Shown: positions 6,566 to 41,219 of the stretch, one piece after another
Layout of the letters: each line of letters starts with the position of its first letter
Position numbering within the stretch: position 1 is the stretch's first letter
Origin: Malacoraja senta
Lineage: Eukaryota
Assembly: GCA_038087875.1 (NCBI GenBank)
Contig: CM075991.1
Coordinates: forward strand, 11,348,001 to 11,412,000
Length of the DNA: 64,000 nt
Direction: 5' to 3'
Position numbers and translations under genes: made by a program
The notes under the pieces: model-generated
What the model was told of the DNA's origin: nothing
Seen by the model: only the letters and a program-made list of their open reading frames with translations
Databases searched by the model: none

Positions 6566-7601
6566 GGCCCATCAAGTCAACTCTGCCATTCTCCTGCCTT
6601 CTCCCCATAACCCCTGACACCCGCACTAATCAAGAATCTATCTATCCCTGCCTTAAAAATATCCACTGACTAGTTCTCCACGGCTTTCTGCGGCAAAGAT
6701 TTCCACAGATTCACCCACTCTGCCTCTCACCCTCAGATCCTTCGGCCCACAATGTCCACGCCGAAAACATGATGCTACGGACATGACCAATATCCCTCCA
6801 TTCCCTGCATATCCATGTGCCTGTCCAAACTCCTCCAAAACACCACTATCGTATCTGCCTCCACCACCACCTCTGGCAGTGCATTCCAGGCACCTACCAC
6901 CCTCTGTGTTAAAAAAAAATCTTGCACTGCTCATCTACTAGAAATGTTGCCCCTCTCACCTTAAAGCTATGCCCTCTAGTGCTGGATATTTCTACCCTGG
7001 GGAAAAGGGACTGAGTGTTGACCATGTCTATGCCCATCTAAAGGACAACTAGAAAGGGCAGTTCAATGCGGCCTCATCCAGCAATACCCACAGCTTCTTC
7101 TTCTTCTTCTTCTTCTTCTTCGTGTGGCGTGCACAGCCTAAAGTTGGCGGACAACTTGTTCTATTTGATACCCACAGCTCTTGAATGTGTTAAAAAAAAT
7201 AAAAAATTAAAAATAAAAAATAGCTACAACAAATGGGCCCTGTATCTGCTCACAATCTCCACTTCTACTTCACCAGATATCGCACTTCAGCAGCAGCTCA
7301 AATTTTCCAACCACACAGCGAGTAAAAGGTGTGGTCAGCGGCAGAGTTGCTGACGTGCAGCCCTCACAGCGCCAGAGAACCCGGTTCGATCCCGGCTACG
7401 GGTGCTGTGAGAGTTTGGGCGTTCTCCCCGTGACCGCGTGGGTTTGTAAATTTAAAATTGCCCCTAATGTGTGCAGGACAATGCTAGTGTGCGGGGGGGT
7501 CGGCGGTCGGCACGGACACGGTGGGCCGAAGGGCCTGTTTCCGCCCCGTATAACTGAAACTAAAAGACTGGTGTCTGCCACAGCGCAAGCATGGTGCACC
7601 T

Positions 7602-8809: not shown

Positions 8810-9770
8810 CTTGACTCTCGTTCTCCAACCTCCCCCCCCCCCCCCCCCCGCCTGGCCCCCTCCTCTCCGAGCCCTCACCCCCCTCCAGCTTCTCAGACAG
8901 TCAGCGATTTCCCATGAAGCAGAGAGAGGGAGGTTTACGACAACCCACGCCCAGCTTCGTCACTCTTTCCACAGGGGAAGCTCGGCTCATTGCAGAGTGG
9001 AAGTATCTCAAGACCGTCTCCTAGAACAAGATGCCTATCTGGTTTCTATTTTTTCGAGAAGAGCTTTTTCACAAAACGCAGCAGAAATATGTTGCAGCTT
9101 TTGCTGGGTCACCAGAGAGGGAACTGACCCCAAAGTAACCAAAATCTCCTTACCCTCCAATCCCATTGATGGCACTTGCCTTGGAGATGAGACCCTTGGA
9201 GATAGATTAGAGATAGAGCACAGAAACAGGCCCTTCGGCCCACTGAGTCCATGTTGACCAGCGATGGAACAAGCTGCCAGAGGTGGTAGTTGAGGCAAGG
9301 ACATGGATAGCACCAACATTTAAGAAACAGTTAGACAGGGTACAAGGATAGGACGGGTTTGGAGGAATATGGACCAAATGGTGGCAGGTGGGACTAGTGT
9401 AGCTGGGGCATGTTGGCCGGTGTGGGCAAGTTGAGCCGAAGGGCCTGTTTCAACGCTGTATCACTCTATGACGCGATGACTCCATGGCTGTCAGATACTA
9501 ATGAGCCAAAGCTAGTCTTAATCCAAAGATATACACAAACAGGGAGTAACTCAGCGGATCAGACAGCATCTCTGGAGAAAGGAATAGTTGAAGTTTTGTG
9601 TCGAGACACATAGATACATAGGCATAGACAATAGGTGCAGGAGTAGGCCGTTCGGCCCTTCGAGCCAGCACCGCCATTCAATGTGATCAGGGCTGATCAT
9701 CCCCAATCAGTACCCCGTTCCTGCCTTCTCCCCATATCCCTTGATTCCTCTAACCCTAAGAGCTCTATCT

Positions 9771-9824
9771 GGGGTGGGAGATTGCAACCTTCACGTGGAC
9801 CGCCCTGTTTCGACGAATGCAATC
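9771..9824 (+). ncRNA. Minimal HDV/CPEB3-like ribozyme fold at 5' end of a short retroposon
   Basis: P1 GGGGTGG/CCGCCCT, P2 GATTGCA/TGCAATC, P3 ACC/GGA, L3 TTCACGT, TTCG stub for P4, J4/2 ACGAA. Confidence 0.8.
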
Positions 9825-9916
9825 AACCTGGCGTGCACAATCAAGTAAGATCAAATAGAACAAGTTGTCCTACAACTTTAGGCTGAGCACGCCATACGCA
9901 AGAAGAAGAAAAAAGA
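9771..9916 (+). mobile_element. 146-bp non-autonomous retroposon with (AAG)n tail, nested in CR1
   Basis: 10-bp TSD AGCTCTATCT at 9761-9770 and 9917-9926; a 3' fragment of the same family is at ~7095-7170 (-). Confidence 0.85.
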
Positions 9917-11114
9917 AGCTCTATCTAACTCAAAAGAGAGCATCCAGAGAACCTGCCTCCACCGCCCTCTGAGGCAGAGAATTCCACAGACTCACCACTC
10001 TCTGTGAGAAAAAGTGTTTCCTCGTCTCCGTTCTAAATGGCCTACTCCTTATTCTTAAACTGTGTGGTCCCTGGTTCTGGACTCCCCCAACATCGGGAAC
10101 ATGTTTCCTTTATCTAGCGTGTCCTATCCCTTAATAATTTGATATGTTTCTATAAGATCCCCCCTCATCCTTCTAAATTCCAGCACCAGAGACCTGGGTT
10201 AGATCCTGACTTCTTCCGACTGAGAGTCAGGGGAAAGGGAAACAAGAGATATAGACATTGATGTAGAGAGATATAGACCAAAATGAATGAAGGATACTCC
10301 TTAAGAATAAGGAGTAAGCCATTTAGAACGGAGACGAGGAAACACTTTTTCTCACAGAGAGTTGTGAGTCTGTGGAATTCTCAGCCTCAGAGGGCGGTGG
10401 AGGCCGGTTCTCTGGATGCTTTCAAGAGAGAGCTAGATAGGGCTCTTAAAGATAGCGGAGTCAGGGGATATGGGGAGAAGGCAGGAACGGGGTACTGATT
10501 GGGGATGATCAGCCATGATCACATTGAATGGCGGTGCTGGCTCAAAGGGGCGAATGGCCTGCTCCTGCACCTATTATCTATTGATATGCAAAAAAGTTAC
10601 GATGATAAAAGAAACAGGCCATTGTTAGCTGTGGGCTGGGTGAAAACCAGTTACAGACAATGAGACTCAACAAGACGACTTTGAGTAGGAAGGAACTGCA
10701 GATGCTGGTTTACAACTGAAGGTAGCATCAAATGCTGGAGTAACTCAGCGGGACAGGCAGCATCTCTGGACCTGGGTGGGGAAGGGATGGAGAAAGAGGG
10801 GGATGAAAGAGTTACTTGCTTCCTGCTAGTTGGTAGACAAAAAATGCTGGAGAAACTCAGCGGGTGAGGCAGCATCTATGGAGGGACCCGAAACGTCGCC
10901 TATTCCTTCCCTCCATAGATGCTGCCTCACCGACTGAGTTTCTCCAGCATTTTTTGTCTGCCTTCGATTTTTTTCCAACATCTGCAGTTCCTTCTTAAAC
11001 TTTGCATCCTGCTGAGTTACTCCAGCTTTTTTGTGTCTGTCCAGTCTACGGTTTAGACCAGCACCTGCAGTTCCTTGCTCAACATCTCAGCCCATGTCTT
11101 TTTGAATATTTACA

Positions 11115-19761: not shown

Positions 19762-19961
19762 NNNNNNNNNNNNNNNNNNNNNNNNNNNNNNNNNNNNNNN
19801 NNNNNNNNNNNNNNNNNNNNNNNNNNNNNNNNNNNNNNNNNNNNNNNNNNNNNNNNNNNNNNNNNNNNNNNNNNNNNNNNNNNNNNNNNNNNNNNNNNNN
19901 NNNNNNNNNNNNNNNNNNNNNNNNNNNNNNNNNNNNNNNNNNNNNNNNNNNNNNNNNNNNN
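19762..19961. other. Assembly gap (200 N)
   Basis: Run of N. Confidence 1.
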
Positions 19962-37340: not shown

Positions 37341-40300
37341 ATAATAATAATAATACATTTTATTTGTATAGCGCTTTTCAAGGACTCAAAGTCGCTTTAC
37401 ATGGAGAGTCAAGAACAAAACAAAATAGAGCAGTAAGACAGAGATGCAAAGGGGAGGGGGACATGGGACTAAGGGTATGCAGAGGTGAAGAGATGGGTCT
37501 TGAGGCGGGACTGGAGGATGGTGAGGGACTCAGAATTTCGGATCAATTGTGGGAGGGAGTTCCAGAGCCTGGGAGCTGCCCTGGAGAAGGCTCTGTTTCC
37601 AAAAGTGCAGAGGTTGGATTTCGGAATGGAGAGGAGACCGGCTGATGTGGATCTGATGGACCGTGAGGGTTGGTAGGGGGAGAGGAGGTCAGTGAGATAA
37701 GGGGGGGCCAAGTGGTTGAGGGCTTTGTAGGTGAGGACCAGGATTTTGTAGATGATCCGGTGGGAAATGGGAAGCCAGTGAAGTTCTTTGAGAACTGGGG
37801 TGATGTGGTGCCAGGATTTGGTGTGGGTGATGAGTCGGGCGGCTGCATTCTGGACCAGTTGGAGTCGGTTGATGTTGCTGGAATTAATGCCAAAGAGAAG
37901 AGAGTTACAGTAGTCCAGTCGGGAGGAGATGAAGGCATGGATGAGTCAGCAGCGGGGGGTGTGTGAGAGGGTCTGATTTTGGCAATGTTGCGGAGGTGAA
38001 AAAATGATGTTTTGACAACATGGCGGATGTGAGGCTCAAGGGAGAGGGTTGAGTCAAAGATCACGCCAAGGTTGCGGGCCTGAGGAGATGGGGAGACAGT
38101 GGTGCCGTCAATAGTGAGAGTGGGGTTGTTAATTTTGGTAAGTCTTGATTTGGAGCCAATGAGGAGAAATTCTGTTTTGTTACTGTTTAATTTAAGGAAG
38201 TTGAGTTGCATCCAAGATTTGATGGCTGACAGGCAGGAGTTGATATGGGAGAGAGGGGGGTGGTGGGGGGACTTGGTGCTGAGATAGATCTGGGTGTCAT
38301 CAGCATAGCAATGGAAGTCCAGGTTGAAGTGACGGAGTATATGACCAAGGGGGAGGATGTAGATGATGAAGAGGAGGGGACCGAGAAGGGAGCCTTGGGG
38401 AACGCCTTGAGTGACAGTGGCTGTGGCAGAGGTGTGGTTATGGAGAGAGATGAAGTGGGATCGGTTGGAAAGGTAGGAACGGAGCCAGCTGAGTGCAGAA
38501 CCTTCAATGCCAAGGTCCCTAAGTCTGGTGAGCAGGATGTTATGGTTCACGGTATCAAAGGCTGCACTCAGGTCGAGGAGGATGAGGATGTTGAGGGAAC
38601 CAGTGTCAGCAGAGGTGAGGAGGTCGTTGAGGACTTTGAGGAGAGCAGGGTCTGTGCTATGGAGGGGGCGAAAGCCAGATTAGAGGTGTTCGAATAGGTT
38701 ACACGCGAGGAGGTGGGAATGAAGTTGTGACGCGACGATACGCTCCAGGGTTTTTGAAAGAAAGGGGAGGTTTGAGATAGGGCGGTAGTTAATGAGAGAG
38801 GAGGGATCAAGACCAGGTTTCTTTAAGATTGGTGTGACAGCAGCAGTTTTGAAAGCAGAGGGGACAATTCCTTGGGACAATGAGGAGTTGAAGAGATTAG
38901 TGAGGTAGGGGCAGAGAGCGGGGAGGCAGGACTTCAGCAGGGGAGTGCGGAGAGGGTCGAGGGAGCAGGTAGTGGGTTTGGAAGAGCTGATGAGTTTGGA
39001 GATTTCAGTAGGGGTGACCGGGTCAAACTGGGAGAGGAAGCAGTGTGGAGGAGGGGTAAGGAGGTCAGTGGAGATGTTGAAAGGAGGGGCCTTGGTAGGT
39101 GGTGGAGTAGATGCTGGGGAGTCGGGTACAGGGGATAAAGATTGATAGATGGTGCTGATTTTGTCAGCGAGAAAGTGGAGGAATGAGTTGCAGAGATCCG
39201 GAGTGGAGGTAGGGAGAGTGTTGGCTCGAGGCTTGAGGAGGTTGGACACTGTGGAGAAGAGGGTTCTGTGGTTTAGGCAGGGGTCGGTGAATATGGAGGA
39301 GAGGTAGGCAGATTTAGCAGCAATGAGGGCATCTTTGTAGGCAGTGAGGTGGAGTTTGTAAGCTTCATGGTGGACTGTGAGAGATGATTTCTTTATGAGT
39401 CGTTCAAGTCGGCGACCAGTCTGTTTCAGCTTACGAAGTGCAGGTGTGTACCAGGGTGAAGATTTATTAAACGTTACGGTTCTTGTTTTGAGGGGGGCCA
39501 GAGTGTTAAGGGAGGTAGACAAGGTGGAATTGAGATGGTTTGTGAGATCATCAGGTGAGATGTGGGTTGAGTCCAGGGGGAGAGTGGTGGAGAGCAGGTC
39601 AGAGAGATGGTGGGGGTCGATGGATTTTAGATTACGGAAGGTGATTTCTCGGAGGAAGCGGGGGCGAGGTGTCGGAGAAGGGATGGTGAACCGTATAAGC
39701 TTATGATCAGAGAGGGGGAAGAGGCATGGATGGAGGTCGAGTACCGGTTGATTTGTGGAGCAGACCAGGTCAAGGATGTGACCTTTGTCATGAGTGGGAA
39801 AGGTGACGTGCTGAGTGAGAGAGAAGTTGTCAAGTAAAAAAGCGAATTCAGATGCGAGCTTGCAGGTGGGGGAGTCCATATGAATATTTAAGTCACCAAG
39901 TAGCAGCAGACGTGGGGAGAGAGATAAGGCAAGTGTGAGGAGTTCAGTGAAGTCAGATAGGAAGGAGGGGTTTGGTTTAGGTGGCCGGTAAATGAGGATG
40001 ACTGTCATGGAGGAAAGGGCTTTGAAGGCAAGGAATTCAAATGATGCTACTGGGGAGAGGGGGAGTTCAGCGATCGGAAAGTTCTGGTTGAAAATAATAG
40101 CGAGGCCACCTCCATGGCGGGAGGGGCGGGGTTTGGAGATATAATTAAATCCAGATGGGGATGCTTGATTGAGGGAGAAAAAGACATTGGGTTGTTGCCA
40201 GGTTTCAGTGAGCAGAAGGAAGTCAAGAGTGTTGTCAAGGATTAGTTCATGGAGGGCAAGGGCTTTGTTGTTGAGCGACCGGGTGTTGAGGAGGGCAAAG

Positions 40301-41219
40301 TTGGCATTGTGAGAGGGTGGAGGGATGGGGGCAGGCTGGAGAGATCTGAGGTTGTCCCAGTTGACAGTGCATGTGGCCAGCTGGGATGGGGGGTGACGCG
40401 GTTGAGGGGGGGCAGAGCGTGGTAGTGAGCAGATGGATGGAATGGAATGTCCGTGGCCGAAGCAAACAAGCTTGCGTCGAGAGCCTCTGTGGATGTAACG
40501 GGGTCGACGCAGAAGTCCAAACTGTTTAATGACTGGGATGCAGGATGGGATGTAATTGTTGAAGAGACCAGTCAGCCGCAGAGCCGAGTATTTGAGCATG
40601 ATGAGGAGCCCGAGCAACTGCAGGAAGCAGCAGAGAGGTTGTCCAGCAGCGAGGGCGCAGAGAGGCCGTCCAGCGGTGCGGGTGGAGAGAGTATCCAGCG
40701 GTGAGGGAGCAGAGAGGCCGTCCAATGGAGTGGGTGCAGCGAGGTGACCAGCAGTGCAGGTGCAGAGAGGCCGTCCAGCAACGCAGGTGCAGGGGCCGTC
40801 CAGCGGGGCAGGTGCAGAGAGGCTGTCCAGGGTGCGGGTGCAGATGCCGTCCAGCGTTGCTGGTGCAGGGAGGTGTCCAGCGTCGGTGGTGCACAGACAG
40901 GTAACAGACAGGTTACAAAAGAGGGGGGGGGGGAATGGCGGGCTGAGAAGCGGCAAACAGTCAACGCCAGCGTCCTCTCCGGGCAGCGTGCAGGGTTCTA
41001 GCGGCTAGCGATGTAGGCCGCTGTCAGCTGAAGATCGTTCCACGGCCACGGCCAGAAACGCCGCAGACCACCGCAATCGGAGCGACCCTCCAGTGGTCCT
41101 CGTCGGGTGGTAGGTCCAGGCCTCGTCCGAGGTGGAAATTTACCGCAGTCGGCAATTGAAGCCGACTCGCTATAAGGAGTCGTTGTCATTCGAATCTGCT
41201 TCCACCGCTGCCATTTTGC
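37341..41219 (-). mobile_element. Full-length L2-clade LINE (APE endonuclease + RT), near intact
   Basis: ORF from ~40599 (LLNTRSL, LTETW, GDLN, SDH; QGVPQGS, YADD) to 37469; one TAA at 38680 and one frameshift at ~37946; L2 3' tail + (TAT)n. Confidence 0.93.

Follow-up and report, generated by a model that had tools for sequence, protein, structure and literature searches.

We describe a short retroposon, here called family A, whose 5' end is a candidate self-cleaving ribozyme of the hepatitis delta virus (HDV) type. The copy that defines the family lies at positions 9771-9916 of the window, a 64,000-nucleotide (nt) stretch of the Malacoraja senta genome (G000:C15:11348001-11412000; assembly of 1.94 Gb in 6,182 contigs). 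With a probability of roughly 0.7, family A is a non-autonomous retroposon headed by a CPEB3-type HDV-like ribozyme without helix P4, a head homologous to those of LINEs (long interspersed nuclear elements), and its RNA would be freed by self-cleavage and copied by a LINE. The window copy is 146 bp long, reads on the plus strand and is bounded by perfect 10-bp target-site duplications, AGCTCTATCT, at 9761-9770 and 9917-9926. It consists of the head (9771-9824), a 3' domain (9825-9894) and a 3' end (9895-9916), where ATACGC is followed by an (AAG)n and A-rich tail, GCCATACGC and then AAG repeats. The tail length differs from copy to copy. The coordinates and strings given in the preliminary description of this element all agree with the window sequence. 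The insertion site is itself another very high-copy repeat, which continues on both sides of the element.

The head shows the layout of an HDV-like nested double pseudoknot, in the order P1, P2, P3, L3, P3', P1', J4/2, P2', and it is treated as a ribozyme candidate on the basis of pair counts, family copies and covariation with LINE heads. P1 joins GGGGTGG (9771-77) to CCGCCCT (9800-06) in seven pairs, including the G1-T pair (G9771-T9806) and one T-G pair. J1/2 occupies 9778-79. P2 joins GATTGCA (9780-86) to TGCAATC (9818-24) in seven Watson-Crick pairs, and P3 joins ACC (9787-89) to GGA (9797-99) around the 7-nt L3, TTCACGT (9790-96). J1/4, GT (9807-08), follows directly after P1. A linker of five nucleotides, TTCGA (9809-13), stands in place of P4, and J4/2, CGAA (9814-17), directly precedes the 3' strand of P2 and carries the candidate catalytic C9814. 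Only two of the three P3 pairs are present in the window copy. Because A9799 breaks the third, this particular copy would probably cleave poorly.

Family A is young and has at least about 1,500 copies. The genome holds 1,469 exact matches to the 27-nt core 9800-9826, with 737 and 732 on the two strands, and none to the reversed control. A search with the whole element gave 778 first-look candidates; the 40 that were scored are all 97-100% identical, and 38 of them start at query base 1. Copy statistics were taken from 31 near-full copies in the 30 loci read. Two pairs of loci, L003/L006 and L012/L013, arose by segmental duplication, which leaves about 29 independent insertions. G1 is the first base of all 31 copies, the DNA upstream of it is unrelated, and 29 share the first ten bases. 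Target duplications of at least 8 bp, with one mismatch allowed, flank 27 copies; those of the remaining four are decayed. Position 9799 is T in 30 of the 31, so the family P3 is ACC/GGT and the GGA of the window copy is a private defect. All 17 pairs (P1 7/7, P2 7/7 and P3 3/3) are kept in 28 copies, L3 is intact in 30, and CGAA is found in every one. The preliminary description had foreseen the pile-up of 5' ends at G1, the lack of copies extending upstream of it and a consensus P3 with GGT, and the copies bear out all three. Dispersed copies, a fixed 3' end, a simple-repeat tail, target duplications, 5' truncation and the absence of an open reading frame (ORF) together mark a non-autonomous retroposon of the non-long-terminal-repeat class. 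The family, its exact ends, its duplications and its truncated copies are all read directly from the DNA.

Two further pieces of family A lie in the window. One is a 5'-truncated copy on the minus strand at 7096-7169, running from about element nt 80 to the tail (90.6% BLAST identity over nt 80-143); sequence reading gives 12-bp duplications, AGCTGTGGGTAT, at 7168-7179 and 7084-7095. The other is a head fragment (nt 1-53) on the plus strand at 640-692, with 92.5% BLAST identity, which is cut off by another repeat. In this fragment the U-G pair of P1 has become U-A and P2 has one mismatch. A near-identical sequence is present in sequencing runs labelled with eight organisms from twelve studies, and in two such runs unrelated sequence sets in at 9771 in 12 contigs and at 9908/9910 in 8 and 18 contigs. 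The raw DNA runs X22 and X23, of other organisms, lack the element, an absence that has no bearing on the family. Differences in the contigs are transitions only (9802, 9815, 9829 and 9845), with none at 9799 or 9887 despite the T in most genome copies. The 9845 G-to-A change is all but fixed in runs X15 and X17, where it points to an older subfamily. At L031 and L032 (the latter G000:C1310:1-7100, minus strand), a family-A copy is split in the 3' hairpin by a DNA transposon of about 980 bp with long terminal inverted repeats, and the locus of the split copy is duplicated whole on another contig. An apparent older variant in L003/L006, considered as a LINE 5' untranslated region, was rejected; it is a normal copy that holds the ~980-bp terminal-inverted-repeat transposon.

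The unpaired core of the head is that of the CPEB3 ribozyme. L3, the GT of J1/4 and the CGAA of J4/2 are letter-identical to the Rfam CPEB3 consensus, as the preliminary description had stated. With L3 and J1/4 in these letters, P1.1 could form. The C of J4/2, placed just before the P2 3' strand, matches the position of the catalytic C, and the same CGAA stands in the LINE-C heads described below as well as in the Rfam consensus. G1 is at once the first base of a ~1,500-copy element and, at the base of P1, the partner of a U. A compact descriptor (7-bp P1 with G1-U, 7-bp P2, P3 with at least two of three pairs, 7-nt L3 and C-purine-A before the P2 3' strand) finds a single site in the window, that at 9771; a looser descriptor was discarded, as it was swamped by (TG)n microsatellites. 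From this stretch of sequence alone the ribozyme reading would be weak. Since the layout by itself is not beyond chance, the case is built on the identity of the unpaired core and on the relatives of the head. Four facts place the candidate ribozyme beyond chance: the identity of L3, the coincidence of G1 with the start of the element, the homologous heads on LINEs and the covariation of the helices.

The first of these relatives is a second short retroposon, family B. The sole above-threshold Rfam match in the window is to CPEB3_ribozyme at 1489-1565 (37.8 bits against a gathering score of 35), and with the family loci it identifies a 3'-truncated family-B copy on the plus strand at 1500-1584, which stops after about 85 nt where another repeat cuts it off. 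Family B is about 195 nt long, with 2,891 first-look candidates in the genome. In each of the 17 other loci that bear the head, the element starts at the same G and the flanks are unrelated; target duplications are present and the tail reads ...GGACACGAA(AGAAG)n. The head has P1 GGCCCC/GGGGCT and P2 TAGCAGAA/TTCTGCTA. A degenerate search for family-B-like tails behind other upstream sequence led to a LINE 3' end and from there to a full-length old element, LINE-B (L076), which starts with the family-B head at 92.7% identity. Its ORF has an endonuclease domain at the very start, then a reverse transcriptase (RT) domain and a C-terminal Cys/His motif. The element ends ...ACATGAAAGAAAAAG and is flanked by a duplication of ~11 bp with two mismatches. 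Family B corresponds to the first ~190 nt of LINE-B, including ~24 codons, joined to its last ~35 nt, and by this comparison it is an internal-deletion derivative of LINE-B. LINE-B shares the P2 letters of the CPEB3 ribozyme. A 5'-truncated LINE-B copy (L073, G000:C750:79900-81300) lies inside another RT-bearing element, and the pair recurs at several loci with a constant spacing of ~4.8 kb, as if the host element or the segment had been copied after the insertion.

Family B demonstrates that short LINE-derived elements exist in this genome, and family A might likewise be a LINE cut down to a 5' or 3' piece, such as an untranslated-region fragment with accidental boundaries. We regard this as very improbable. 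Both ends are common to all 31 near-full copies and none extends upstream. Pattern searches for the head and for the 3' domain of family A turned up no longer element that recurs, again in line with the preliminary description. Four matches have the 3' domain after sequence other than the head, and judged from their strings only they fit copies with small indels or truncations. Fifty have the head before non-family sequence; about 44 of these depart from the family at only one of the two positions tested, and no recurrent family is among them.

A protein search from LINE-B leads to a larger group, 50-58% identical, whose open frames reach 1,029 aa. In this group LINE-C (L077, G000:C8:934380-938080, minus strand) has a 1,014-aa ORF without stops, with matches to endonuclease (PF03372 and PF14529) and RT (PF00078) domains; the domain search gave no RNase H match. 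The LINE-C head reads GGGGATC, A, AGGTAGAA, GCG, TTCACGT, CGC, GATCCCT, GT, an 8-bp P4 hairpin, CGAA and TTCTACC, giving P1 GGGGATC/GATCCCT and P2 GGTAGAA/TTCTACC. It shares the letters of P3, L3, J1/4 and J4/2 with the CPEB3 ribozyme. The heads of four intact or near-intact LINE-C elements (L077, L079, L080 and L081) match the whole RF00622 model at 63.8, 52.8, 52.6 and 40.7 bits. When the genome was scanned with RF00622, 39 of the 59 scored candidates passed 35 bits, the best at 64.2, and none of 14 control genomes was positive. Some of the above-threshold matches span only 61-65 nt over the full model (such as C13:8596080-8596144 and C6:36061494-36061554) and may be additional heads in which P4 is very short. 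The 3' end of LINE-C is ...ACACGAAAAGAAG (AAAGACACGAAAAGAAGAAG) in three of four copies. Amphioxus, sea urchins, Anolis, teleosts and insects have proteins related to that of LINE-C (45-63% identity, each about 920-1,000 aa long), a distribution that marks the lineage as old and widespread. At the 5' ends of L077 and L079, four to six tandem 26-nt repeats of the segment from P1 (GATC) to P3 stand before the complete ribozyme, likely caused by the presence of GATC in both P1 strands.

LINE-D has open frames of 986 and 932 aa. Its head (L084:354-449) has P1 GGG(A)CTGC/GCAGCCT with 7/7 pairs and one bulged A, P2 ATACAGA/TCTGTAT with 7/7 pairs, and P3 ACC/GGT, the same P3 as in family A. L3 is TCCCCGT, P4 is a long hairpin, and the head has no Rfam match. 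All nine copies end ...ACTCGAAGAAG (GAGATTGCAACGGACTCGAAGAAGAAG). On the small contigs C2327, C5921, C5101, C2348 and C2790, LINE-D-like RT matches recur every ~10-18 kb, which suggests copies in a tandemly repeated unit.

Across head types A to D, L3 always reads T-Y-C-M-C-G-T. The helices change between the types and still pair. In an alignment of the heads of family A (two copies), family B (two), LINE-B and LINE-C (two) under the P1/P2/P3 structure, 95% of the cells pair, and both sides change in 12 of the 18 pairs. The alignment scores 0.659 for covariation; shuffles score 0.25, with none of 500 reaching the observed value, and partners slid by 1-3 columns score 0.06-0.16. Fold topology, helix covariation and intact LINEs with the same kind of tail are thus observed in the sequences themselves, whereas cleavage of the RNA is predicted from them.

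The 3' domain points to LINE proteins as well. It has an 11-bp outer stem (9829-39/9884-94) around a 7-bp hairpin (9862-68/9872-78), and the outer stem of the window copy has one A-A mismatch at 9837/9886. Nucleotides 55-136 of the natural copy L010 fold as RNA with an energy of -23.9 kcal/mol (z -3.29; 2 of 200 shuffles as good), and single-stranded AUACGC(AAG)n lies directly 3' of the stem-loop. This predicted stem-loop followed by AUACGC(AAG)n has the usual look of a LINE-recognized 3' end. A CG-A-(AAG)n ending is common to family A, family B, LINE-B, LINE-C and LINE-D; it reads ACGC(AAG)n in family A and ACGAA(AGAAG)n in family B. No (AAG)n ends besides those of families A and B were found in the 243 kb of sequence examined. 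From the tail type we infer that the partner would be a young, intact ribozyme-headed LINE such as LINE-C or LINE-D, because these share both the CG-A-(AAG)n end and a ribozyme head with family A while L1 ends in poly(A). The abundant intact L1 (1,271-aa ORF2) was rejected as partner for its poly(A) tail. The nearest named relatives of an intact L1 ORF2 from this genome are teleost proteins at 34-42% identity, in keeping with a fish-like vertebrate outside the mammals. A B-type LINE was rejected as live partner since every copy recovered has decayed, with 77-90% amino-acid identity and no open frame longer than 488 aa. The candidate LINEs are compact, with a single ORF for endonuclease and RT and no RNase H match, and this domain set would fit the Ingi/Vingi group to whose ends the preliminary description likens the tail. 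The 11-mer GAGATTGCAAC occurs both in the family-A head (nt 8-18, window 9778-9788, covering J1/2 and the P2 5' strand) and in the LINE-D 3' end, where it lies ~10 nt before the tail in 9/9 copies (L090-L098); 4 of 500 shuffles reach the alignment score.

The proposed cycle can be set out as follows. A family-A copy in any transcribed region would be read through from upstream. The head would fold and cut the RNA just 5' of G1, and the released RNA would start with an intact ribozyme. LINE protein acting in trans would engage the 3' stem-loop and the ACGC(AAG)n end, nick the target and reverse-transcribe the RNA, leaving 9-15-bp target duplications and sometimes a 5' truncation. As the cut lies upstream of the ribozyme, each full-length daughter would again carry it. 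Catalysis, read-through transcription, the lack of an own promoter and the identity of the copying LINE lineage are the parts of this cycle that we infer.

Several points weigh against the ribozyme-headed retroposon as proposed. P4 is absent, with only the five nucleotides of the linker between J1/4 and J4/2. Searches with the Rfam models of the HDV family at E up to 10 find nothing in the head, whether of the window copy or of the natural GGT copy L010, and the RF00622 gathering score of 35 bits is not reached; the match to HDV or CPEB3 models that the preliminary description had looked to did not appear. The nested part of the head (P1 and P3) is the minimum-energy fold, but its z-score is +0.92 and 168 of 200 shuffles are as good. 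J1/4 has A for G in 3 of the 31 copies, and a propagating subfamily with this A, if there is one, would argue that the G is dispensable. The contig difference table lacks an A-to-T change at 9799, although 30 of the 31 genome copies carry T. The covariation comes from three independent lineages, with LINE-D counted by hand, and the structure was read off the same sequences, which favors it over the slid controls. Genome pattern searches gave no LINE with the exact family-A head or 3' domain. In keeping with the earlier suggestion that a LINE lends its RT, LINEs with related heads and the same kind of tail exist; none of those found has this exact head or 3' domain. The ends of family A and LINE-D are weakly alike in sequence: at the 5' end 38 of 500 shuffles align as well, at the 3' end 4 of 500.

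Of 100 dinucleotide shuffles of the window, 16 also hold one or more sites that fit the compact descriptor; the mean is 0.18 per shuffle. Topology alone was rejected as evidence, with one real site against this mean. The pseudoknot could then be a chance look-alike on an ordinary short interspersed nuclear element with an unrecognized head derived from a small RNA. This is hardly credible for family A. Rfam gives no tRNA, 7SL, 5S or snRNA match to the element at E up to 10, and no RNA polymerase III (Pol III) A or B box lies in it within 2 mismatches of the consensus motifs, so the statement of the preliminary description that such boxes are missing stands. L3, GT and CGAA are identical to the CPEB3 consensus, and homologous heads are found on LINEs of the same genome.

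The lost P4, the missing Rfam match, the unremarkable nested folding and the J1/4 substitutions would also fit a head that descends from a LINE ribozyme and no longer cuts. It would then persist at the 5' end for its structure, for the binding of protein or as an internal promoter like Pr77 of L1Tc/NARTc, and the uniform start at G1 would come from transcription initiation or from a reverse-transcription endpoint. In trypanosomes the same 77 nt serve as promoter and ribozyme (PMC3383444). We nevertheless consider a non-cutting head unlikely. The CPEB3-type single-stranded core is kept (L3 in 30/31 copies, CGAA in 31/31), while the helices differ from those of LINE heads and yet pair. A core kept while helices change and still pair is expected of a working ribozyme over a relic. 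Natural HDV-like ribozymes without P4 are on record (PMC10879173), and as minimal HDV-like ribozymes lack P4, its loss is no bar to membership. No promoter motif was found in a search limited to Pol III boxes. A head that cuts its own RNA remains the preferred reading.

The closest known arrangement is in Trypanosoma cruzi, where L1Tc and its short non-autonomous partner NARTc both begin with an HDV-like ribozyme of ~77 nt (PMC3185411, PMC3383444 and PMC4035085). As proposed for family A, this ribozyme (Pr77/L1TcRz) is described as freeing the RNA from co-transcripts and passing into each new copy. The trypanosomatid elements have poly(A)-type ends and a head that doubles as promoter. Family A differs from them in its vertebrate host, its (AAG)n tail, its CPEB3-type core, the loss of P4 and a head sequence common to no LINE found. 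In Drosophila, non-autonomous copies of R2 (SIDEs) arise by internal deletion and combine a 5' HDV-like ribozyme with the LINE 3' end (PMC3414825). The origin of family B from LINE-B is of this kind, while family A is no simple deletion derivative. The endonuclease of R2 is restriction-like and its insertions are confined to 28S ribosomal DNA, whereas the elements described here are of the apurinic/apyrimidinic endonuclease (APE) type and dispersed, with ordinary target duplications.

The CPEB3 ribozyme (RF00622) has the same fold as the family-A head and identical L3 UUCACGU, J1/4 GU and J4/2 CGAA, and LINE-C heads match its whole model at up to 63.8-64.2 bits. It has a P4 helix, is present as one copy in an intron and has been reported from mammals only (PMC8233481). 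Unlike it, family A has no P4, has other P1, P2 and P3 sequences and is not matched by the model at E up to 10. The minimal HDV-like ribozymes without a P4 domain, drz-Mtgn and the theta ribozymes of gut phages (PMC10879173), are metagenomic or phage RNAs next to tRNAs, unlike a vertebrate retroposon head with a CPEB3-type core. Vingi-clade LINEs, for example Vingi-1 of Anolis, are compact, single-ORF, APE-type elements without RNase H (PMC13708176). LINE-C is like them in that its single ORF, of 1,014 aa, has endonuclease and RT domains but gives no match to RNase H, and an Anolis protein is among its relatives, at 49% identity. All four mentions of HDV-like ribozymes in that review concern R2, and no statement of Vingi ribozyme heads was found. 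Hammerhead retrozymes, Penelope-linked hammerheads and the twister variants of Schistosoma LINEs also place a self-cleaving ribozyme in a non-autonomous retroelement. They are of other ribozyme classes, and retrozymes differ further in a life cycle that goes via circular RNA.

Other features of the window include the repeat that flanks the element (9690-9770 and 9917-9990; also 690-900 and 1680-1760), whose contig depth is far above that of the element in runs X15 and X17. Two adjoining ORFs of another LINE lie on the minus strand at 37543-40956, one of 758 aa with an endonuclease domain and one of 335 aa with an RT domain. Positions 19762-19961 are 200 consecutive N, probably an assembly gap, since a run of equal length is found in L031.

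Insects and trypanosomes are known to hold ribozyme-terminated LINEs together with short elements that parasitize these. Ruminski et al. in 2011 are said to have mentioned chordates too. LINE or short-element heads of the CPEB3 type have no description in the searchable literature, that is, the literature without subscription journals, Repbase and Dfam. The logic of release by a ribozyme is already known from L1Tc/NARTc and from R2 and its deletion derivatives. Three things appear to be new within the searchable literature: a high-copy vertebrate retroposon with a P4-less HDV-like ribozyme head; four head types, A, B, C and D, borne by LINEs and short elements in one genome, with natural covariation data for the fold; and heads outside mammals that score above the curated threshold of the model named 'Mammalian CPEB3 ribozyme'.

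LINE-B shares the P2 letters of the CPEB3 ribozyme and LINE-C those of P3, L3, J1/4 and J4/2, which makes common descent of the LINE heads and CPEB3 a fair hypothesis. Convergence on a constrained core is possible as an explanation of the same likeness. We propose tentatively, and at somewhat less than even odds, that the 'mammal-only' CPEB3 ribozyme is an exapted head of a compact ribozyme-headed LINE lineage and its short derivatives. If this exaptation is true, the LINE heads are the missing outgroup for the evolution of the CPEB3 ribozyme, and should they be related to it, where that ribozyme came from can be put to a direct test. Family A would add that the same scaffold can shed P4 and yet spread to ~1,500 copies, and its minimal head would be a compact natural module that defines a 5' end.

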